DNA from: Alphaproteobacteria bacterium
Lineage (GTDB): Bacteria; Pseudomonadota; Alphaproteobacteria; RF32; CAG-239
NCBI GenBank assembly: GCA_017480995.1
Contig: JAFUQJ010000051.1
Location: 1 to 48,763, forward strand
Direction of reading: 5' to 3'
DNA: 48,763 nt
This document shows positions 2,343-40,044 of this stretch, in pieces. Positions within the stretch are counted from its first letter, which is position 1. Every line of letters starts with the position of its first letter. A program made the translations under genes and the position numbers. The notes beneath the pieces were generated by a model. It did not search any database. It was given only the letters and a program-made list of their open reading frames with translations, and had not been told where the DNA came from.

Positions 2343-3653
2343 ATGAAGAAAAAAATCACAAAAACATTGGTCGAGAGCGCGGCGACTCCGCAAAATTCAA
2401 AACTTTTAATCTGGGATGAGACAATTTCCGGATTCCATGTTGTTATACGTCCGAGCGGGCGCAAGAGTTTCTATGCTGTATATCGACTGCGTAATCACAA
2501 ACAACAACGTTTGAAGCTTGGCGATTTTCCGGCCATGACGGTTGAGGAGGCGCGCGAAAAATGCAAGGCACTGATGAACCAGGCCTTTGACGGTGTGGAT
2601 CCTTTGGCTGTTATTCGCGAACGCGCAAGGCTTGAAGAGCCGGATCCGGCCAAAAACGGCACGATGCGCGACCTGTATGCCAAATATATGGCCGAGCATG
2701 CGATTTTTAAGAAACCGGCGAGCCGCAAGAACGACGTTATTTACTGGGAAAGGCATATTTTACCGAGAATTGGCGACAAACGCGTGCGCGAGGTCACCCG
2801 CGGTGACATTTCGGCCATCCATAAGGGAATCGGCGCCGAGCTGAACCGCAAGGGCGAACTGATGAAGACGACAGCCAACCGCGTGCTTGAGGTTTTGAAA
2901 AAGGCTTTTTCCCTGGCCGAGGAATGGGAATGGCGGCCGGAGGGCTCCAATCCCGGGGCGCGGATTAAAAAGTTCAAGGAACAGGCCCGCAACCGATATC
3001 TGACACTTCAGGAAGCGGCGGCTCTTGACAAAGTTCTGGTGAAATATCTCGATGCCGGATATCGCGAGCGGCAGGTTGCGCGGCTGGTTCTGATTTTGCT
3101 TTTGGTCGGCGGTCGCAAGCAAGAGATAAGGAATGCCCGCTGGGAATGGGTTAATCTTGAGCGCGGCGTTTTATCCCTGCCGGACAGCAAGTCAAACGAG
3201 CCGCAGGATATCCAGCTGCCGGACAAAGTTTTGGATATTTTGGCGGATATTCGCGAAGATCAGCGGCGGAATAATCGGGAAAGCGACTATATTTTTGACG
3301 GGCACGTTCGCGGCCAGCCGCTTAAAGACGAGGGCAAGCATTGGGACAACATCCGCGCCGAGGCCGGTTTGAAAGATTTCCGCATGCACGATCTGCGCCA
3401 CAGTTTTGCCTCGTACATGGCCATGGCGACAGGATCCGAGCTGATGATCCAGCAAAGCCTGCGGCACGCTGATGCCAAAACGTCGAAACGCTACACCCAT
3501 ATGTTTAATGAGCCTTTGCGTTCGGCGGTCAATCAGACGGCCGGAAAAATTATCGAGGCCATGCGCGGCGATAAAATCGTTGATTTTGAAACGGCCAAGC
3601 AAGCACACCGCAAGGCTAACGACCGCGGTCAGGTGTCCGAACAGACTGCGTGA
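2343..3653 (+). CDS. int: tyrosine integrase (P4-type, tRNA-targeting)
   Basis: N-terminal arm-binding-like region (ISGFHVVIRPSGRKSFYAVYR). C-terminal HDLRHSFAS ... RYTH catalytic motifs. Confidence 0.9.
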   Translation: MKKKITKTLVESAATPQNSKLLIWDETISGFHVVIRPSGRKSFYAVYRLRNHKQQRLKLGDFPAMTVEEAREKCKALMNQAFDGVDPLAVIRERARLEEPDPAKNGTMRDLYAKYMAEHAIFKKPASRKNDVIYWERHILPRIGDKRVREVTRGDISAIHKGIGAELNRKGELMKTTANRVLEVLKKAFSLAEEWEWRPEGSNPGARIKKFKEQARNRYLTLQEAAALDKVLVKYLDAGYRERQVARLVLILLLVGGRKQEIRNARWEWVNLERGVLSLPDSKSNEPQDIQLPDKVLDILADIREDQRRNNRESDYIFDGHVRGQPLKDEGKHWDNIRAEAGLKDFRMHDLRHSFASYMAMATGSELMIQQSLRHADAKTSKRYTHMFNEPLRSAVNQTAGKIIEAMRGDKIVDFETAKQAHRKANDRGQVSEQTA

Positions 3654-4092
3654 GGCTGTTCAGAAACTTGACAACTCCCTCTTTGGCCATAAGGTCGGCT
3701 AAGGCGTTATTGATGGCTTTAAATTGATAGTGACCGGTGTGAGCCTTGACTTTTTCGATTTTTAAGCCCTGCGGGGCGATTTGGTTGATACGGTATGCCC
3801 ATTTGCGGCATTCGAGCCGGTTTTTCTGCTGTTTTGGCGTGAGGGGGCGGTCTTTGATATTGTCGGAAATGTAGGCAATGGCGTTTTGGCTGTCGGTGTA
3901 GAGCGTATGCGGCCCGGGATATTGCTTGATGAGTTCAAGAGCATAATATATGGCGTAGAGCTCGCCGATGTTGTTGTTTTCGGCCTTAATCCATTTTGAA
4001 AAGATGCGGCGCTGCTGTCCGCAGATGATGACACAACCGATTCCGGCAACCCCGTGTTTTTCGTTGAAGCTGGAATCGGTGTATATTATCAT
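3616..4092 (-). CDS. RNase H (type 1) domain protein
   Basis: MIIYTDSS...GIG...GELYAIYYAL...LYTDSQ...KAHTGH resembles the RNase HI DEDD pattern. ATG 4092 overlaps the spanin stop (ATGA). Confidence 0.75.
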   Translation of the reverse strand: MIIYTDSSFNEKHGVAGIGCVIICGQQRRIFSKWIKAENNNIGELYAIYYALELIKQYPGPHTLYTDSQNAIAYISDNIKDRPLTPKQQKNRLECRKWAYRINQIAPQGLKIEKVKAHTGHYQFKAINNALADLMAKEGVVKFLNSLTQSVRTPDRGR

Positions 4093-4955: not shown

Positions 4956-5694
4956 AGCGGTTCTCCTTGATTTGCTGTCCGTCAAAAGCCAGGCCGGTGA
5001 TGCGTCCGTTGATCATCAGGCCGAATTTTTCGACGTCCATAAACATTTCGTAAAAAAATACCCACCAGGTTTTGACTACCTCGATCGACATTTCGTCAGA
5101 TGATAGCAGCTCACGCAATAGCCCGACGTGCGACGACATCCAGACCTTGAACATCTCGTTGATGTAGGCGATTTTGTCCTCGCTCCAGTTTTCACCGCTT
5201 AACTTTTGGCGGACGACTTTTTGAACGGCGTCGATAGCGCCGCAGGCAATATGATGGTGGGTTTTGCGGTAGCTGGTGAAGTCCTCGTTTTTGATTTTGC
5301 CCTGCCGATAGTCATTATACATGGTGGTGAAGCCCTTAAAAAAAGCCTCAAACATGGTTTTGACAAGGTATTGATAAAAGCGGTTGCGGCCTGGATCGCG
5401 GTCAATTTGCAGATCCGAGATGCGGCAGATGAGCCCGTAGATCTTTTCGGCAAATTTCTCGTAGCGCAAATCGCACAGTTCAATAACTTCGAGCTGGCGC
5501 TCGGCTTTGGCGCGATATCTGCCGGAGCAATGCCGGAGGATAACCGACCCGAGGCGGCGCAGGGGTTGCTCATATTTTATCCAGGCCAGCACACCCAGGC
5601 AAAACAGGGTTATCGCCAGCAAAAGCCAAATAAACGGGTTGCCCTCTGCCAAAAGCATGACGATGTTATCCCAGTTTAGCCTGATGTCTGACAT
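4948..5694 (-). CDS. membrane protein of unknown function (upstream of endolysin)
   Basis: One N-terminal TM helix (FIWLLLAITLFCLGVLAWI), then a helical soluble part. Position fits a holin or lysis regulator but its size is atypical. Confidence 0.5.
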   Translation of the reverse strand: MSDIRLNWDNIVMLLAEGNPFIWLLLAITLFCLGVLAWIKYEQPLRRLGSVILRHCSGRYRAKAERQLEVIELCDLRYEKFAEKIYGLICRISDLQIDRDPGRNRFYQYLVKTMFEAFFKGFTTMYNDYRQGKIKNEDFTSYRKTHHHIACGAIDAVQKVVRQKLSGENWSEDKIAYINEMFKVWMSSHVGLLRELLSSDEMSIEVVKTWWVFFYEMFMDVEKFGLMINGRITGLAFDGQQIKENRYE

Positions 5695-5700
5695 TTTCCG

Positions 5701-6075
5701 CTACTCCGTCAATTCTTCAACTTCTTCAATCGTAAAACCGAGACGAAAGATTTCGGCGTTCGGATCTTCGACAAGGGTAAAAATTGACCATTTTTCCGGC
5801 TCGCCATCTTTGGCCGTGTTGATCAGTCTTGAGTTTTCGCCGTTGTCGAGCTCGGCTCTGGCGGCGGCATTGGCGGCAATAGTCTCGTTTTCTTCGGCCT
5901 CGGTGGCGCCGTCCGGTACGGGAACCGGCTCAAAAACCTCGCCGCTGTCTTTCCAGATAAAGCGGTCGGCGGCCAGAGAGCGCAGGCGTTCTTTTGCCTG
6001 GTCCGTGTATTCGGGGTCGGCCAAAAGGTTCAAATAGTCTTGTTTGGTGCAGAAAATTTTAGGAAATCCTCTCAT
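5701..6075 (-). CDS. hypothetical acidic protein downstream of the DGR RT
   Basis: 124-aa ORF, tightly packed in the RT operon. No motif recognised. Confidence 0.55.
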   Translation of the reverse strand: MRGFPKIFCTKQDYLNLLADPEYTDQAKERLRSLAADRFIWKDSGEVFEPVPVPDGATEAEENETIAANAAARAELDNGENSRLINTAKDGEPEKWSIFTLVEDPNAEIFRLGFTIEEVEELTE

Positions 6076-6089
6076 TTTTTTGTGTCCTT

Positions 6090-6440
6090 TCAGATGATTT
6101 TGAGCGCGCGGTCATCTTTGACAATCGTGCCGACACGCGGCAGTTTGTCTTTGAAAACTTCGAGCGTTTTGGTTATGTTTTTAGACTGCGTGAAAAATAT
6201 ATGCTTTTCGCCGTCTACAATGATTTGCACCTTGGTCACGGATTCGCCGAAACGCTTGTATTGACTGGGTGCAACGCTAAAATCCACGAAGACAATCTTT
6301 TTGTTCAAAAGCTTGTCAACGGGGATTTTCGAGCCGACAAAGCCGCTTTGCTCATTTGATTTTCTGAGCATTTCCGGATCATCGGCAAAAGCCGGATAAT
6401 TGTCATAATCTGGCGAGGATGTCATTTGCTGTTCTTGCAT
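6090..6440 (-). CDS. hypothetical protein overlapping the RT 3' end
   Basis: 116-aa ORF overlapping the RT by up to 38 nt; start uncertain. No motif recognised and not Avd-like by eye. Confidence 0.5.
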   Translation of the reverse strand: MQEQQMTSSPDYDNYPAFADDPEMLRKSNEQSGFVGSKIPVDKLLNKKIVFVDFSVAPSQYKRFGESVTKVQIIVDGEKHIFFTQSKNITKTLEVFKDKLPRVGTIVKDDRALKII

Positions 6441-7446
6441 TTTTTGAGGCCTCTCTTAACCGGTCAAGATCAAGTTTTATTCGCAGATTGTATGTTTTTG
6501 CCCATTTCATCCAGCCGTCATAACTGGCAATGACCGAACGAAACTGCTCAGCCGTTATTTTGTGCCGGTGCAGATTGTAGACGGCTTTTTTGATGCGTTT
6601 GCGCGCTCTTTTGGCTGTTGACTTGCGCAGCAGTATGTATTCCGGAAAATGGCGGTAACCCAGAAAATCAACACCGCGGCTGACGGGAAAAAGGTCGCAT
6701 TTGCTCATGCGGAGCCGGAGCCTGTCGGTTAAAAACTGCCTGATTTTGGCGGCGGCATCGTTCAAAACTTTTTTGTCGTTGTGAAAAAGGCAAAAATCGT
6801 CGCAATAGCGCAGGTAGCATTTGATTTTGAGCTGATGCCGGACAAACTGGTCAAGCTCATTCAAATACAGATTGCCAAACCATTGGCTGGTGAAGTTACC
6901 GATCGGCGTGTTGGTTTCGCCGGGAAAGCTGTCAATAATGTCATCAATCAGCCACAGGACGTCTTTATCTTTAATTTTGCGGCGGACGATGCTTTTTAAA
7001 ACATCGTGGTTGATGGACGGATAAAATTTTGAAATATCGCATTTCAGGCAATATCTGTTGCCGCGGATATATTCCATTGTCTTCAGGCTGCCCTTGTGCA
7101 TGCCTTTGTTGTCGCGGCAGGCGTAGGATTCCGCAATAAACAGATTATCCCAAATCGGGATTAAAACGTTCATTACCGCGTGCTGGACAATACGATCGGG
7201 GTTAAACGGCAAAATATAAATAGTCCGGCGTTTGGGTTCAAAAACGGTTTTGGTGCTGTAATGCGCCGTTGTGAAGGTCTTGTTGACCAGGCTTTGACGT
7301 ATTTTTTCAAGATTGTTTTCCAAATCGCGGTTAAAGAGACGCACATTGCGCTTTTTGCCCTTGCCGAGCTTTGCCTGCTCATAGGACAAGCGGATGTTTT
7401 CTTTGGTGATGACACTCGGCCACAAATTTCCGTATCTTTTAACCAT
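6403..7446 (-). CDS. DGR reverse transcriptase
   Basis: RT domain with IGNFTSQ (DGR hallmark [ILV]GxxxSQ) and YCDD catalytic motif. Lies beside the TR/VR pair. Confidence 0.9.
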   Translation of the reverse strand: MVKRYGNLWPSVITKENIRLSYEQAKLGKGKKRNVRLFNRDLENNLEKIRQSLVNKTFTTAHYSTKTVFEPKRRTIYILPFNPDRIVQHAVMNVLIPIWDNLFIAESYACRDNKGMHKGSLKTMEYIRGNRYCLKCDISKFYPSINHDVLKSIVRRKIKDKDVLWLIDDIIDSFPGETNTPIGNFTSQWFGNLYLNELDQFVRHQLKIKCYLRYCDDFCLFHNDKKVLNDAAAKIRQFLTDRLRLRMSKCDLFPVSRGVDFLGYRHFPEYILLRKSTAKRARKRIKKAVYNLHRHKITAEQFRSVIASYDGWMKWAKTYNLRIKLDLDRLREASKNARTANDILARL

Positions 7447-7554: not shown

Positions 7555-7606
7555 TGCGACATGGATAAATATCTCAGCCGGAGTTATCCAAGAGGATTAA
7601 ACCGTA

Positions 7607-7719
7607 TCCGCCCGCGCGCGCCATTATTGACATTCGTATTCGAAAGCGAATTATTCGCATTGCGACAACGGGAACTGCAGTTCGAGGAATTGTCCCAGTT
7701 GCCTCCTGCCAGAAGCACC
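7607..7719 (-). repeat. DGR template repeat (TR), 113 bp
   Basis: Gapless alignment to VR1 at offset 222. Adenine-rich AAY codons in the VR frame. Non-coding, between target gene and RT. Confidence 0.9.
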
Positions 7720-7802
7720 CGGTAATGTACTGCTCGTGATAAATATTTACCCAAAACCTTCATATTTTTTTGCCTTTTCTTTTTAATTAAAAAGAATTTG
7801 CC

Positions 7803-9290
7803 CTAGTTTGGCATCCTCTTTGGCAGGCTCCGCCCGCGCGCGCCATTAGCGACATACGCAAGCGAAAGCGAATGATCCGCAATGCGACAACGGGAACCGC
7901 AGTCCGAGGAACTGGCCCAGCGGCCCCCCGCCAGAAGCACCATACAGGAGCCGTAGAACGAACCTTCGTCGCCGTTCTGGCTGTTCCAGTTCGCACCGCC
8001 GGCGGCGTGAGTTTCGGCCAAATGTTGCCATTGCAGGCCGCACATTTCCTCACAACCTATGTTTGATACCATTCTGCGGCCGGCTGTGTCGCTGTGGCCT
8101 CCGGTTGTGTCCGGGCTCGGCTGTTTGGAGCCGCTGACAACGGTTTTTTGGTTGCTGCCTTTGGACGCCGAATAGAATTCTTCATCATGCAATAACGTTT
8201 TTTTGACCGAGCGCTGGTCATCCACAAAATCAAAGTGCATTCTGGTGTTGGCTCGGGTGCCGCCGTAGACCGATTTTGTGTTGGCGCCGGTGCCGGACTG
8301 ATTATAGATGTCAACCCAGACATCATTAACGTCGTCATAAACCATGCCTTCCGGCTCGGATATCGGCCGGTGGTTTAAGCACCACACCGAGGCGGGCAGA
8401 ATGTCGCCGGCAACGTAACCGGACAGCGGATGACCCGAGATTGTGCCGACATTGCTGCATTCGGTGTGAAATCCGCCGATTTTGCGCGAGTTGTCCGCCG
8501 AATATCCGCCCGGATAGGTAGAGTTGAGCGAAACAACAAATTTTGTGCCATTGTCGCCTTCCGGTACCAAAAAGATGTGATAGTCCTTGCCGGCCGAGAA
8601 TGACGCGCCGGAATCCATCAGCGACTGGCAGTTGATAACTTCATCCGAGGTTTGCTGGCGCCAGCGTGACACGCCGTCGACTTCCAGACGGATGATACTC
8701 CCCGCCTTGATGGTGATGTTGCGCTTGCCGTTGACGACCAAAAACGGGTTGACCTGGAAGAAGGTGTCATAATTGGCCACGCCCGAGGTTTCGTAGGAGG
8801 TTGAGATGAACTCCCAGTAATTCCCTGCGGCGTTCCAGGAAAATTCCACTATGGCGCCGGTTAAGAGGTCGCCGGAGCTTAAATCTGCGGTGCCGGCATA
8901 TTTTTTTGCCGGTTTGGCACCGGTGCCGTAGGCGTTGATGGTTGCTGAGCCGCTGTTTGGGTGAACGACCTTGAAACGGATGCGCTGTCCGTCGGTTAAG
9001 GCGCTGTATTGTACCTGCCCGGTTGACGACAGCACATAAACGTTGGCCGCGGATGACGAGGCCTCTGCGCAAAAGTCGGAAATGGTGGCGGCCTCAAACA
9101 AAGCGGTGCCGAGCTGATTGTTGGCCTCTGCCGGCGTCATGCCCAGTTTGGTGATGGCCGCGACGATTTCACGTTGCGGATTTTCAAGAGCTCCGGCCGG
9201 AATGATTGAACCTTCCTGTCCGTTGGCAGGGTCCGCATTGACGTATATAGCGTCTGGATCTTCGGAATTTAAAGGCGGTGTGTATTTCAT
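7803..9290 (-). CDS. tail fibre / receptor-binding protein, DGR target
   Basis: Tail-fibre position after the baseplate genes. C-terminus CMVLLAGGRW..DCGSRCR..GARG looks like a CLec/FGE-type fold and contains VR1. Confidence 0.85.
   Translation of the reverse strand: MKYTPPLNSEDPDAIYVNADPANGQEGSIIPAGALENPQREIVAAITKLGMTPAEANNQLGTALFEAATISDFCAEASSSAANVYVLSSTGQVQYSALTDGQRIRFKVVHPNSGSATINAYGTGAKPAKKYAGTADLSSGDLLTGAIVEFSWNAAGNYWEFISTSYETSGVANYDTFFQVNPFLVVNGKRNITIKAGSIIRLEVDGVSRWRQQTSDEVINCQSLMDSGASFSAGKDYHIFLVPEGDNGTKFVVSLNSTYPGGYSADNSRKIGGFHTECSNVGTISGHPLSGYVAGDILPASVWCLNHRPISEPEGMVYDDVNDVWVDIYNQSGTGANTKSVYGGTRANTRMHFDFVDDQRSVKKTLLHDEEFYSASKGSNQKTVVSGSKQPSPDTTGGHSDTAGRRMVSNIGCEEMCGLQWQHLAETHAAGGANWNSQNGDEGSFYGSCMVLLAGGRWASSSDCGSRCRIADHSLSLAYVANGARGRSLPKRMPN
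7829..7941 (-). repeat. DGR variable repeat VR1
   Basis: 17 mismatches to TR, all at TR adenines (manual alignment). GC-rich IMH-like 3' end ggcgcgcgcgggcgg. Confidence 0.9.
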
Positions 9291-11446: not shown

Positions 11447-11536
11447 TTTTATCCGCTTTCATACTTTTTAATACTATTAAAGTTTTTTTATACTTTTAAT
11501 TTACCGTTTTGAAACTCAAAAAGTCAAAAAATAAAA

Positions 11537-25146: not shown

Positions 25147-25677
25147 TTATTTTTCTTTATTCTTATCTTTAACGGCACGAACTTCGGCACTTCCAAAGGC
25201 GTCATAACCCGTCAGGCCGTTGATAAATTGCGGCAGGTCAATGAGTTCGCCGTTGTCGTCGTGCAGATCTTTTATTTTGTCGCTGACGAACGTGCGCTCA
25301 GCCTTGCGCAACTGGCAATAGCCTTGAAAATAAAAGCGGGTTTTGCTGTCTTTGAATATTTTGTGCAAAGCGATGCGGCGTTTGGTCTTCTTTCCGGAGG
25401 CGTCGGTGTAGGAAAAGTTTATCGGAACGCCTTTGTCGGATTGCCACACCGGCTCGCCAAAGCCCGGAAGATCGAAATCATCGTCCGTGTCGCGTTTTTG
25501 TTCAATGACGTGGTAAAAACCACCGCCGATGATGGCATAGAGCAACATAATAACCGGGATTGTCCAGCCGGCGCTGATGATGTCATACCCGTATAAAACC
25601 GCCCCGCCGATGATGGCAAGAAATGCCGCCGCCGACAACACCTGTTTTTTGGTTTCTTCAAATTCTTTTTCAGTCAT
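25147..25677 (-). CDS. membrane-anchored WYL-domain protein
   Basis: Start ATG 25677 after AAAGGA. Two TM helices, then RRIALHKIF..TRFYFQGYCQLRKAERTFVSDKI, which matches the WYL-domain pattern. Confidence 0.65.
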   Translation of the reverse strand: MTEKEFEETKKQVLSAAAFLAIIGGAVLYGYDIISAGWTIPVIMLLYAIIGGGFYHVIEQKRDTDDDFDLPGFGEPVWQSDKGVPINFSYTDASGKKTKRRIALHKIFKDSKTRFYFQGYCQLRKAERTFVSDKIKDLHDDNGELIDLPQFINGLTGYDAFGSAEVRAVKDKNKEK

Positions 25678-25708
25678 AACCCTGTCCTTTCCGTCAAAAT
25701 TATACTTT

Positions 25709-25737
25709 ATCGTAGCATCAAAGTATAAAATAGTCAA
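25709..25737 (-). promoter_or_regulatory. sigma70-like promoter for the WYL gene
   Basis: Minus strand TTGACT, 17-nt spacer, TACGAT, about 30 nt upstream of ATG 25677. Confidence 0.45.
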
Positions 25738-25786
25738 CAAAAAGTATAAAAAAGTCATTGTTTTTGACTTTTTCAAATTGTGCAAA

Positions 25787-25891
25787 CTTCTGGCAGGGGG
25801 CGCCTGGGACAGATCCTCGTACTGCGGTTCCCGCAGTCGCTTTGCGTGGGGTTCGCTTTCGGACACGTCTGTCTATACTGGCGCGCGCGGG
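25787..25891 (+). repeat. orphan VR-like cassette VR3
   Basis: Gapless match to sense TR positions 5-109. 17 adenine-site and 5 other differences (manual). Hairpin at 25912-25931 follows. Confidence 0.8.
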
Positions 25892-25944
25892 TTGATCCGT
25901 GCCAAAGGGATCTTTTGCGAACACGCAAAAGAGGCGGCCTGTAT

Positions 25945-26054
25945 GGTGCTTCTGGCGGGAGGCTCCTGGGACATTTCCTCGGATTGCGGTTCCCGCTGTC
26001 GTACTGCGGACAATTCGCTTTCGGTTGCGTATGGCAATTATGGCGCGCGCGGGC
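25945..26054 (+). repeat. orphan VR-like cassette VR4
   Basis: Gapless match to sense TR positions 1-110. 13 adenine-site and 5 other differences (manual). Hairpin at 26071-26096 follows. Confidence 0.8.
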
Positions 26055-26099
26055 ATATCCGCCAAAATAACTTTTTCTTCCCTTGGAAGTAAAAAGGCA

Positions 26100-28028
26100 T
26101 CAGGCAAATCTGCCGACCAGGCGCCTACGGCGGCGCGGCCTTAAAATATCCGGCTTAGGGATATTTTCAACAACCACTTCGGGATTGCGTTCTACCATTT
26201 CGCGGACTTTTTCGGCGTATTCCTGCCGCGCGAGCATCTTTTCCCAGCGCCGCCGCATGTTCAGCCCTGAAAGTTTGAGCCCTTCCAACGCTGCCAGGGC
26301 ATAGCCGAATATGTCCAGCGCCTCGTTGCGTTTGCGTCCCGGACGCAGGGCGTAATAACGGAGCTTGCGTCCTTTGACATAAGAGGTTTTGGCTTCCTCG
26401 GCTGTCAGCTGAATAAAGTGGTTTTCGTCGTAACTCATGTTAAAATGGCAATATCCGGGGGCTGCCGGATCGTCAATCTTAAGCCGCGAATAAACCACGT
26501 CTTTGACCGTATCGGTGCCGACCAGAAAAAACTCCAGATTGAGCTTTTTAATTTTTCCCGGAGCGCGTTTGAGAATCGGGCGGCCTTCGCCTGGCATGCC
26601 TTTAATCGCCCAGACGCGCCGGTTCCAACGTTCCTGACAAAACTTACCGACCTGCTGGGTTAAATAGCCGCTGTCGATGCAACAGGCCGAGATTTCCATT
26701 TCGCCGGTCAAGGCGTGGGGGATTGGTGTTTGCAAGAGGTCGTCGAGCTCTTCCCAGATGCGTGCAGCCGCAGGATCGCCGAGCAACACAACCTTGCCGA
26801 GGCCGTAGCTCTGGTTGTTGACCGTCCAGCCGAGGCGCTCAACCTCCAGACGGTCATCCTGGACGTCAACGCCGGCCGTGATGACAACAACCTCCGGCGG
26901 CGCTGTCGTGTAATCCTCGCGCCGGTTGATCAGTCTGGTTTCGTCGACGCGCTCGCCTTTGTCTTCCCACACCTGACCGAGCGAGGTGTTGATGAATGTT
27001 TTTAATGCCTCCGGATCGTCCTTGGCGTCAAGAAAAGATTTGACTATTTCCTTGAGCGGCACCCAGGGCGAATACCCCTCCCAGAGCGAAAATCCCGCGT
27101 GTCCGTTAAACGGCATGGTTGCCTCCCAGCGCCCGAGGCCGACGGCGTGCCAACGCTCGACATCATTCCAGCAGGCGCCGCAATGCGGGCAGGCATACAC
27201 GGCCGTTTTGGCGCTTTCCTCATTTGTTTCTTTTTTTTCCCACTTGACGTTTGCCCACTCAATCCGCTGATATTTACCGCAATGCGGGCACGGCACCAAA
27301 AAAAAGCGCATGTCCGATTGCTGGAATGATGCGTCTATTTTGCTCATGCCGGCAATGGTCGGCGTGGAGCATTTGACGATTTTGCGGTTCCAAAACGTGG
27401 TTGTTCTTTTTATGGCCAGCTTGACCGGGTCACCCTCTTTGCCGGCCGACAACGGATAACGGTCGACTTCGTCCATCATGACAACGCGGATCGGGCGGCT
27501 GGCCAGCTCGGCGGCCGAATTGGCGCCGACCATGGTGATGTGCCCGCCGGGGAACGACTTGTGCAAGACGGTGTTGCCGCTGTCTTTGCTGTCCGAGACC
27601 TTGCCCTGCAGACACGGCGTGTCGCGGAGCATCGGCATCAGACGGTCGGTTGACCAGCTCTTGGCGACGTTTTCAGTCGGCTGCATCAGGAGGATCGGGC
27701 AAGGGTCTTTGTCGATGTAGTAGCCTATGGCGTTGTTGATGATTTCGGTTTTGCCGACCTGAGACGAGGCGACAATCGTCACCTCAGACACATTGATGTC
27801 TGATATGGCGTCCATAATACCGCGCTGATATTCGGCGCGGCTGGTATTCCAGTCCCCGGGCTCAGCGGAACTCTCGGAACTCAGCTTGCGGTTGGCGTCC
27901 GCCCACTCGGAAATCGTCTGGCGCGGCGGTAGCTCCAAACCTTTTAGGAAGCCTTCGCAAAAGCACCTAACGCCTTCCAATATCAGCCATTCGTCTGAGT
28001 ATCTCTCGACCGCATCTGTTGCATTCAT
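26100..28028 (-). CDS. terL: terminase large subunit, lambda gpA-like
   Basis: 642 aa. Walker-like SSQVGKTE, MMDEVD, and a zinc-ribbon-like CPHCG...CPHCG, as in the gpA family. Confidence 0.85.
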   Translation of the reverse strand: MNATDAVERYSDEWLILEGVRCFCEGFLKGLELPPRQTISEWADANRKLSSESSAEPGDWNTSRAEYQRGIMDAISDINVSEVTIVASSQVGKTEIINNAIGYYIDKDPCPILLMQPTENVAKSWSTDRLMPMLRDTPCLQGKVSDSKDSGNTVLHKSFPGGHITMVGANSAAELASRPIRVVMMDEVDRYPLSAGKEGDPVKLAIKRTTTFWNRKIVKCSTPTIAGMSKIDASFQQSDMRFFLVPCPHCGKYQRIEWANVKWEKKETNEESAKTAVYACPHCGACWNDVERWHAVGLGRWEATMPFNGHAGFSLWEGYSPWVPLKEIVKSFLDAKDDPEALKTFINTSLGQVWEDKGERVDETRLINRREDYTTAPPEVVVITAGVDVQDDRLEVERLGWTVNNQSYGLGKVVLLGDPAAARIWEELDDLLQTPIPHALTGEMEISACCIDSGYLTQQVGKFCQERWNRRVWAIKGMPGEGRPILKRAPGKIKKLNLEFFLVGTDTVKDVVYSRLKIDDPAAPGYCHFNMSYDENHFIQLTAEEAKTSYVKGRKLRYYALRPGRKRNEALDIFGYALAALEGLKLSGLNMRRRWEKMLARQEYAEKVREMVERNPEVVVENIPKPDILRPRRRRRLVGRFA

Positions 28029-30995: not shown

Positions 30996-31025
30996 ATGAT
31001 AGTATTTTTTGACTTAAAAAGTCAA
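30996..31025 (-). promoter_or_regulatory. sigma70-like promoter of the late/packaging block
   Basis: Minus strand TTGACT, 18-nt spacer, TATCAT. The -35 lies in the palindrome TTGACTTAAAAAGTCAA. Confidence 0.5.
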
Positions 31026-31059
31026 TAAATTTTATTTTTCTTGACTTTTGCTCTATTTT

Positions 31060-39855: not shown

Positions 39856-39884
39856 ATAATAGTATTTTTTGACTTTTGCAACAA
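39856..39884 (-). promoter_or_regulatory. candidate early-left promoter
   Basis: Minus strand TTGTTG, 17-nt spacer, TATTAT. Shares the 17-nt atagtattttttgactt block with the late promoter region. Confidence 0.4.
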
Positions 39885-39890
39885 CTTTTT

Positions 39891-39920
39891 TATACTTTAT
39901 TATACTTTTTTATACTTTTG
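39891..39920. repeat. three tandem 10-bp TATACTT boxes (operator-like)
   Basis: tatactttat/tatacttttt/tatacttttg at an exact 10-bp period, between the divergent transcription units. Confidence 0.65.
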
Positions 39921-40044
39921 TTGACTTTCTGCGTATTACAGGGGTGTTAAAAAGTCAAAAAAAATCATTTTTATTGACGTTTTTGCCGTTTTTTATTGCA
40001 AAATTGACTTTTTTAATATATGATGTTGTTAGCGTTAAAGGAGT

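Follow-up and report, generated by a model that had tools for sequence, protein, structure and literature searches.

In the BPP-1 model of a diversity-generating retroelement (DGR), integration of complementary DNA (cDNA) begins in a GC-rich element at the 3′ end of the variable repeat (VR), and short homology on the 5′ side suffices (PMC3240598). Sequence upstream is dispensable for homing and the target works in either orientation; an initiation of mutagenic homing (IMH) element and a hairpin, transplanted beside sequence homologous to the template repeat (TR) at a new phage site, direct homing there (PMC3240598). Here we describe a 48,763-nt stretch of DNA from an Alphaproteobacteria bacterium (contig JAFUQJ010000051.1 of assembly GCA_017480995.1; hereafter the window), which holds a prophage of ~47 kb with two VR-like cassettes, VR3 and VR4, standing in tandem outside any gene. 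We put the probability at roughly two in three that these are gene-less (“orphan”) DGR recipient cassettes kept alive by retrohoming and recombination.

One TR serving several VRs, tandem VRs and distant VRs are all known (PMC3521204; PMC6642488). Large DGR surveys define VRs as lying within coding sequence (PMC8144416; PMC5758913; PMC6642488), and one VR outside an identifiable open reading frame (ORF) is mentioned in passing for Pelodictyon phaeoclathratiforme (PMC3521204). The hairpins of the phage DGRs compared for BPP-1 have a GC-rich stem of 7-10 bp and a 4-nt GRNA loop, and are found 4-34 bp from the VR (PMC3240598). The published DGR surveys that we examined contain no population-level account of gene-less VRs that are positionally conserved, rewritten and shuffled, and looking through the literature for orphan, pseudo- or cryptic VRs brought up nothing beyond the Pelodictyon remark.

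Results

VR3 and VR4 copy the 3′ end of the fibre gene

According to a repeat search, one unit of ~106-130 nt is present in five copies in the window, as the TR and as VR1, VR2, VR3 and VR4. The TR core (7716-7611, minus strand; 106 nt, 25 adenines), VR1 (7938-7833, minus strand; repeat search and TR alignment) and a 347-aa DGR reverse transcriptase (RT; 6403-7446, minus strand; Pfam RVT_1) belong to the same element as the cassettes, and the order VR1-TR-RT is unchanged in relatives. VR1, the expressed variable repeat, forms the 3′ end of a gene for a 495-aa Mtd-like tail-fibre target protein (7803-9290, minus strand; Pfam mtd_2nd, E = 5e-25). VR2, VR3 and VR4 are on the plus strand, 16-18 kb from the DGR, between the large terminase gene terL (gpA type; 26100-28028, minus strand, convergent with the cassettes) and gpW/portal (from 23815 downwards).

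The 106-nt cores of VR3 (25786-25891, plus strand, allele “B”) and VR4 (25948-26053, plus strand) align without gaps to the sense TR and end in a GC box, GGCGCGCGCGGG (25880-25891 and 26042-26053, respectively), that is identical in all copies. Over this core, VR1 differs from the TR at 17 adenine sites and at no other, VR2 at 18 adenine and 3 other sites, VR3 at 17 and 6 (17/23 at adenines), and VR4 at 13 and 5 (13/18 at adenines). Both VR3 and VR4 show the near-identity to the TR, with mismatches concentrated at adenines, that characterizes a DGR variable repeat (Fisher test, p = 3e-9 for VR3 and p = 1.5e-6 for VR4).

Downstream of the GC box, each of the four VR copies continues with a short spacer that ends in CCAAA. 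A CTTTT...AAAAG hairpin follows, its inner stem differing in sequence from copy to copy, and after it comes AGGC or AAGGC. The spacer after VR3 (25892-25910, plus strand) is unlike CGGAGCCTGCCAAAGAGGA of VR1 and leads into hairpin 1, TCTTTTGCG-AACA-CGCAAAAGA (25911-25932, plus strand; 9-bp stem, 4-nt loop; centroid -9.7 kcal/mol, z = -2.6), which is conserved in all tandem genomes. The inter-cassette spacer that follows, GGCGGCCTGTATGGT (25933-25947, plus strand), reproduces the 11-16 nt preceding VR1 in the fibre gene. VR4 is followed on the same strand by the IMH-position spacer CATATCCGCCAAAATAA (26054-26070), which in other genomes alternates with VR1-type CGGAGCCTGCC in the same slot, and by hairpin 2, CTTTTTCTTCC-CTT-GGAAGTAAAAAG (26071-26096; -7.4 kcal/mol, z = -2.7), 3 nt from the terL stop codon (26100-26102). 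The two hairpins lie 19 and 17 nt from the GC box, and their stems are AT-rich. The 9-11 nt directly after the GC box, TTGATCCGTG in VR3 and CATATCCG in VR4, are unlike both VR1 (CGGAGCCTG) and the TR (CGGATACGG).

On the 5′ side, the 11-16 nt before VR1 in the fibre gene (CCTGYATGGT) recur before VR2 and VR4. Since this fibre-type flank is absent from the TR, the cassettes are copies of the fibre-gene 3′ end and not insertions of TR cDNA. Fibre-gene homology ends 11-16 nt upstream of the repeat: the cassettes contain no lectin scaffold, and they do not stand at the 3′ end of a target gene with a lectin/Ig-type scaffold. What abuts VR3 is the promoter region (25678-25785) of a minus-strand gene for a WYL-like small membrane protein (25147-25677, start at 25677). 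The frame common to VR3 and VR4 is open over 25577-26092; Pfam finds no domain in the VR3-VR4 ORF, the VR2 ORF or the neighbouring small ORFs, and an Rfam scan returned no RNA family on the cassettes. A promoter scan found no sigma-70 promoter reading into VR3. Inspection of the plus strand before VR3 showed a TTGACT that lacks a usable -10 box, and the called TTGACT promoter (25737-25709) serves the minus-strand gene.

Much of this anatomy had been set out in a first-pass annotation, which a model made from the letters of the window. Its gapless alignments to the sense TR stand, as do its counts of 17 adenine-site and 5 other differences for VR3 and 13 and 5 for VR4, the sixth VR3 difference being core position 1, outside the range it had used. 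Its hairpin behind VR3 (25912-25931) is real and corresponds to the inner 8 bp of the 9-bp stem, and its second hairpin was recovered at the same coordinates beside the terL stop. The single open frame through both cassettes has the translation it gave, and the promoter and start of an opposite-strand gene that it saw upstream, in place of a fibre body, belong to the WYL-like gene. It had also singled out a T-to-C change common to VR3 and VR4 (core position 49 in our numbering) and suggested that the non-adenine differences reflect descent from a slightly different TR, or drift. In keeping with this, 49 C is the TR state in the distant relatives JAFUEX and L161, so VR3 and VR4 were probably last written before the TR changed, or have drifted.

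Related prophages hold gene-less cassettes in fixed slots

Relatives were found with a degenerate DNA pattern, which yielded two rumen Alphaproteobacteria metagenome-assembled genomes (MAGs) and three metagenome contigs, and further assemblies came from exact-protein look-ups of the WYL-like protein, gpW, the RT and a Gp48-like protein. The phage is common, the Gp48-like protein being indexed in about 210 blocks of the collection. Gene-less cassettes occupy these sites in the two MAGs and in 20 further assemblies; the 22 related rumen/gut loci are 94-100% identical outside the cassettes.

The usual layout, with two slots at 15 of the 22 loci, has one cassette after the tRNA terminator (the VR2 slot) and one between the promoter of the WYL-like gene and the terL stop (the terL slot). 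Two loci (L184, L186) end before the VR2 slot and show the terL-side cassette only. The VR3-VR4 tandem is a minority layout of four genome types (window/L179, L181, L183 and L202), which share the spacer (hairpin 1 plus AAAAGAGGCGGCCTGYATGGT) but show four different combinations of contents. Cassettes stand on both sides of an accessory island, composed in the window of the WYL-like gene and an ORF at 24716-24907. Island content differs in L203, L207 and JAFUEX, with other genes (262, 74 and 62 aa) replacing or extending it in L207. In L210 the island is deleted and a single fused cassette (3835-3940, window orientation) joins the 5′ flank of VR2 to the 3′ flank of the terL side. No relative has an intact second target gene at the cassette sites.

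The JAFUEX prophage, at ~70% nucleotide identity to the window, has cassettes at both positions. Four-fold degenerate sites of terL are 40% identical between the two and hence saturated; the JAFUEX cassettes are 96% and 78% identical to their own TR at non-adenine sites, a similarity far greater than expected of neutral DNA. In JAFUEX the terL-side copy is degenerate: its GC box is broken, and it shows 18 non-adenine differences. It shares an odd 5′ stretch, GGCGGGGGCGGCTTGG, with the common allele of the window clade.

In all three genomes with both on one sequence (window, CALXUM and JAFUEX), the cassettes are inverted relative to VR1. We considered an invertible segment or shufflon and rejected it: the three genomes show no alternative orientation, and the only recombinase among the scanned ORFs is the integrase at 2343-3653.

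Among the public phage genomes of INPHARED (blastn “distant”) we found no close relative, only weak terL and tRNA matches. In IMG/VR, terL led to three relatives (L001-L003; 77-86% amino-acid identity) with no VR-like sequence near terL, and a pattern scan returned canonical VR1/TR loci only. In L001 the layout of terL, tRNAs, WYL-like gene and convergent terminator matches that of the window, yet there is no cassette: the promoter region runs straight into the terL stop, and the last tRNA straight into the terminator. As the L001 contig nevertheless carries a fibre gene at one end (L172), the cassettes are insertions that the DGR does not need.

Slot contents vary at TR adenines and in 3′-anchored tracts

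The VR2 slot holds 11 haplotypes at 19 loci, polymorphic at 24/25 adenine versus 13/69 other sites (p = 5e-12), and the terL slot holds 15 haplotypes at 20 loci, polymorphic at 24/25 adenine versus 17/69 other sites (p = 2e-10). Adenine-specific diversification is thus seen for the slots across the 22 genomes, at the level of assemblies; the window's own VR3 and VR4 carry old marks. VR1 has 12 haplotypes in 12 distinct genomes, polymorphic at 24/25 adenine versus 1/69 other sites; the single non-adenine change, in one VR1 of the 12, matches no cassette. The TR is identical in 9/10 related genomes. The cassettes vary less often than VR1, and some of their alleles are common to several genomes.

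The VR2 copy of L167 and the L210 cassette are changed at 15-16 adenines and nowhere else. On the old background of a common terL-slot allele, “X”, the marks disappear starting at the 3′ end, giving way to tracts in which all or nearly all differences from the TR are at adenines. No non-adenine change interrupts the tracts of L203 (positions 47-94) and L209 (77-94). In L207 and L202 the tract again covers 77-94 but includes one such change, at position 91, and the L208 tract, at 59-94, includes two. The left ends of the tracts fall in adenine-free stretches such as TTCGCTTTCG. By analogy with BPP-1, this 3′-anchored polarity matches that expected of mutagenic homing, and we infer that the adenine-only tracts may have been written by retrohoming itself and not by way of gene conversion from VR1.

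Exchange among cassettes and the origin of the tandem

VR4 is identical to allele X (L164, L170, L205 and others) at 79/79 positions from 28 to 106, and its 3′ flank also matches X. Its positions 1-27 differ from the TR at adenines only, and its 5′ flank is fibre-type. VR3 is identical to the allele in the VR2 slot of L168/L170 at 96/106 positions and to the terL-slot allele of L182/L185 at 91/93, compared with only 84/106 for the window's own VR2. As VR3 is a VR2-slot-type allele and VR4 is X with a new 5′ end, the tandem is a product of recombination, which put a VR2-type cassette with its own hairpin before the resident terL cassette. The newcomer may have arrived through one crossover with a VR2-type cassette, circular or foreign, or through template switching.

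Alleles also change slots. The VR2 slot has allele A in the window and L164, and the terL slot has it in L180, L186 and L183, while allele B occupies the VR2 slot in L168, L170, L203 and L209, the terL slot in L182/L185, and the VR3 position in the window. The VR2 slot of L182/L185 holds a chimera with a 5′ part from A and a 3′ part from C, and both cassettes of L207 have one 3′ tract in common. Which spacer follows the GC box, CGGAGCCTG (VR1 type), CATATCCG/A, GCGTGGCCG or TTGATCCGTG, does not depend on the core. The isolated T49 of L204, of L206 and of L211 and the 5′ patch in VR4 are exceptions to the 3′-anchored pattern and point to ordinary gene conversion besides homing. The sequence flow that can be detected runs into the cassettes, as adenine-only tracts, and between cassettes.

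The TR itself varies little. Its changes (window versus L166 and L161) are mainly synonymous, GCTTCTGG versus GCTCCTGG and CGT TGT CGC versus CGC TGT CGG. Cassettes preserve older TR states and can serve as a fossil record of the TR; the marks by which they are recognized include T49C, T50A, G51A, T64G/C, T68C, T79G/C and T87G. The TR of L194 (upstream of the RT at 5961-7004) has A10G, A13G and A17T at its three 5′-most adenines, and this end looks as if it had been converted by a VR.

Prophage context of the cassettes

A tyrosine integrase gene (2343-3653) adjoins a tRNA-Met (1954-2030), the 3′ part of which recurs at the opposite end of the window as a 57-nt copy (48669-48725, 91% identical); the two look like attL/attR of a prophage integrated in tRNA-Met. 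Baseplate genes are Mu-type and head/packaging genes lambda-type, both on the minus strand.

The VR2 cassette (24539-24700, plus strand, allele “A”) consists of the 5′ flank CCTGCATGGT, a core at 24550-24655, a VR1-type IMH and a hairpin, and directly follows the terminator of a tRNA operon. This plus-strand operon (23892-24525) lies within the late region and has a sigma-70-like promoter (23892-23921) rated good; tRNA-Met, tRNA-Pro, an 89-nt tRNA with an unassignable anticodon (24339-24427) and the terminator hairpin come in this order before VR2, and the tRNAs are kept in relatives. Between the VR2 cassette and VR3, the minus strand at 24945-25017 gives a sub-threshold Rfam match to sRNA-Xcc1 (35.6 bits versus a gathering score of 53); the stretch is non-coding and ~80% conserved in L001 (8886-9067), elsewhere 70% identical.

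The TR is contained in a 59-codon ORF (7584-7763, minus strand) that starts 40 nt past the fibre stop and reads the TR in the VR frame; in L201 the gene caller called its counterpart at 5642-5821. Pfam detected no Avd-like accessory protein near the RT. Two small ORFs after the RT (5701-6440, minus strand), one of 116 aa overlapping the RT end and one of 124 aa, have no domain match and are conserved in all relatives.

AT-rich motifs, namely AAAAAGTCAA...TTGACTTTTT (palindromic) and repeats of TATACTTTT, recur in intergenic DNA at 25739-25773, 31016-31049 and 39949-39983, and also at 11447-11500 and 39878-39932. One of them stands directly upstream of VR3 and, in relatives, of the terL-side cassettes. 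The motifs may act as operators or promoters.

Discussion

Starting from the anatomy of VR3 and VR4, the absence of a gene around them, their population pattern and their allelic origin, we propose a mechanism in which each cassette is a copy of the fibre-gene 3′ end (last ~11-16 nt, 106-nt VR, GC box with IMH-position spacer, and hairpin) that came to occupy intergenic DNA on the strand opposite to the fibre gene. Adenine-mutagenised TR cDNA would overwrite the cassettes from the GC box leftwards, over variable lengths. Because BPP-1 targeting needs only an IMH and a hairpin beside TR-homologous sequence, such cassettes could be overwritten. Recombination among cassettes, whether of one genome or of relatives that infect together, would be a second process, and the two together would keep the cassettes TR-like over long times (concerted evolution), shuffle their contents and alter their copy number. 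In the window, the usual single terL-side cassette would have become a tandem in which VR3 stems from an allele of the tRNA-side slot and VR4 is the resident allele with a new 5′ end; the old non-adenine marks on both show that neither has been completely overwritten in recent time. Most likely the cassettes are by-products that are not translated and that receive fibre diversity instead of supplying it, and we infer that they have no function.

Several observations weigh against this proposal. Allele X is unchanged in at least 5 genomes, and VR3 and VR4, with their 5-6 non-adenine marks, are identical in a second assembly that is 99.95% identical to the window, so both are static on that time scale. 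The post-GC-box spacers of VR3 and VR4 are unlike that of VR1, and the hairpins have AACA, CTT, TTGG or AATT loops and AT-rich stems, as opposed to the GC-rich stems and GRNA loops of the compared phage DGRs (PMC3240598); the hairpin of VR1 is equally atypical (AATT loop), so the BPP-1-type consensus may not apply to the present DGR. The idea that a VR1-type IMH marks the rewritten cassettes was not supported, any trend running in the opposite direction (3/16 versus 10/20, p = 0.08). The adenine-only tracts could equally have been copied from a diversified VR1 by gene conversion, and the persistence of two slots across genomes of ~70% identity could reflect selection for some function. Finally, all comparisons are between consensus metagenome assemblies, in which strain mixtures could create some chimeric haplotypes.

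The first-pass annotation had suggested a silent store, with cassettes donating diversified receptor-binding sequence to VR1 by gene conversion in the manner of pilS/vls. The recombining-cassette half of this idea has held up. VR2-VR4 are promoterless partial copies set against one expressed copy, VR1; all are inverted relative to it, so that exchange would spare essential genes; they clearly recombine, including short VR1-type IMH patches within cassettes; and the three adenine-site changes at the 5′ end of the L194 TR suggest that conversion into other family members occurs. Its other half, donation to the fibre gene, is not borne out: silent copies and an expression locus are present, but transfer into the expressed locus is not seen among 12 distinct VR1 haplotypes (a small sample), which bear no cassette marks and have essentially no non-adenine difference from the TR. 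Haplotype sharing at adenine sites between VR1s and cassettes is at background, the exceptions being VR3 with the VR2 of L168 and VR4 with X only; a working DGR yields far more diversity than two or three cassettes, and some cassettes are frameshifted. Since a further round of homing would wipe out any donated tract, donation may occur rarely, but as an account of the cassettes a silent store is quite unlikely. The case that the annotation itself had named as refuting, an intact second target gene in related phages and no exchange, is contradicted by the relatives, where the gene is absent and exchange and variation are abundant. The same absence bears on whether the cassettes are inert relics, decaying 3′ remnants of a second target gene or one-off duplications that are neither rewritten nor used. 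The 5-6 non-adenine differences and altered IMH-position spacers of VR3 and VR4, the identity of allele X in several genomes and the degenerate terL-side cassette of JAFUEX would all suit such relics. Yet no residual lectin-body homology lies upstream and relatives have no gene there, each slot has 11-15 haplotypes with TR-adenine-concentrated changes and 3′-anchored tracts in genomes that are 94-100% identical elsewhere, and similarity to the TR exceeds the neutral expectation by far between JAFUEX and the window; we regard decay alone as decidedly unlikely.

A non-coding function, as terminators or insulators where convergent units end, as antisense to TR or fibre RNA produced by late read-through transcription, or as “linker” homology through which relatives swap or delete the island, is about as improbable as decay. 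Cassettes do flank a variable island that was lost in L210 by cassette-cassette fusion, hairpins persist although stem sequences differ among cassettes, on the minus strand hairpin 2 and the TTATTTT after it look like a terL terminator, and two slots persist across diverged prophages; but L001 has the island, tRNAs and fibre gene with no cassettes, a terminator scan did not call the cassette hairpins, and Rfam offers no RNA family match. Translation of the VR3-VR4 frame (TTG 25778-26092, 104 aa), or of VR4 alone (ATG 25944, 49 aa), into small proteins is very unlikely. The ~45-residue VR segment is without the rest of the Mtd-type lectin scaffold, mtd_2nd being found only upstream in the real gene. 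The frame is indeed open, but its openness is inherited from the TR design (AAY codons). It is disrupted by 1-2-nt indels in the cassettes of L180, L182/L185, L184 and L202 and by a 1-nt deletion in the 5′ flank of L168, and the frame of the C-terminal tail shifts with IMH type (10 nt versus 11 nt). Every tandem genome does have a GAGG 8 nt before the ATG of VR4, but this arrangement is confined to the second slot of the tandem, and no start or ribosome-binding site is conserved; Pfam has no match. Non-adenine differences fall mostly at third codon positions; we rejected this bias as proof of coding selection, since it is also expected from synonymous TR change and relatives have indels. That the tandem and mosaics are repeat mis-joins is scarcely credible: VR/TR repeats often break metagenome assemblies, and several contigs end in VR1 or the TR, but the tandem with the same spacer was recovered at 5 loci from 5 samples by different assembly pipelines, and exact identity between different cassettes is mostly < 31 nt. 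More broadly, it is unlikely that the gene-less repeat family has a role of its own, be it as an archive of receptor sequences or as DGR-refreshed “linkers” for exchange of the terL-gpW island.

The cassettes behave as DGR recipient sites, yet they are not part of a target gene. Our comparisons suggest that a widespread rumen/gut prophage lineage has gene-less VRs with an adenine-specific, 3′-anchored rewriting pattern, shuffled between fixed slots. This is most likely a by-product rather than a new mechanism, and one that is unexpected for DGR biology. If confirmed, it would mean that natural DGR targeting depends on cis elements only, that retrohoming could sustain non-functional repeats as a form of molecular drive, and that DGR repeats could drive structural change in phages through tandem duplication and island deletion. 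The cassettes would also provide an unselected readout of the RT misincorporation spectrum and of homing tract lengths, something that expressed VRs, being subject to selective filtering, cannot offer. Should the cassettes lack any function, they would still be selection-free natural reporters of DGR mutagenesis. For annotators, VR-like matches outside genes are not necessarily noise.

Among known systems, Neisseria pilS/pilE and Borrelia vls resemble the present locus in combining promoterless partial copies with one expressed copy and in segmental recombination. Their hallmark is one-way transfer from silent copies into the expressed locus; here that transfer is not seen, and the diversity of VR1 comes from reverse transcription of the TR. 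In the multi-VR DGRs of surveys, extra VRs are almost always the 3′ ends of complete paralogous genes, whereas the cassettes described here are gene-less. With BPP-1 the locus shares an adenine-specific TR-homologous tract, a 3′ GC-rich box, a cognate TR and RT, an Mtd-like expressed target and 3′-anchored partial tracts; a short hairpin also lies 19-36 nt downstream, compared with the published 4-34 bp. Unlike the BPP-1 target, the cassettes are gene-less, intergenic, on the other strand and 16-18 kb from the DGR; their stems are AT-rich, their loops are not GRNA, their spacer is unlike that of VR1, and Pfam finds no Avd. The engineered BPP-1 site was placed in a selectable gene, whereas the present cassettes are unselected and most likely untranslated. 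As far as homing into them can be judged from sequence, the orphan cassettes look like a natural equivalent of the transplanted BPP-1 target.

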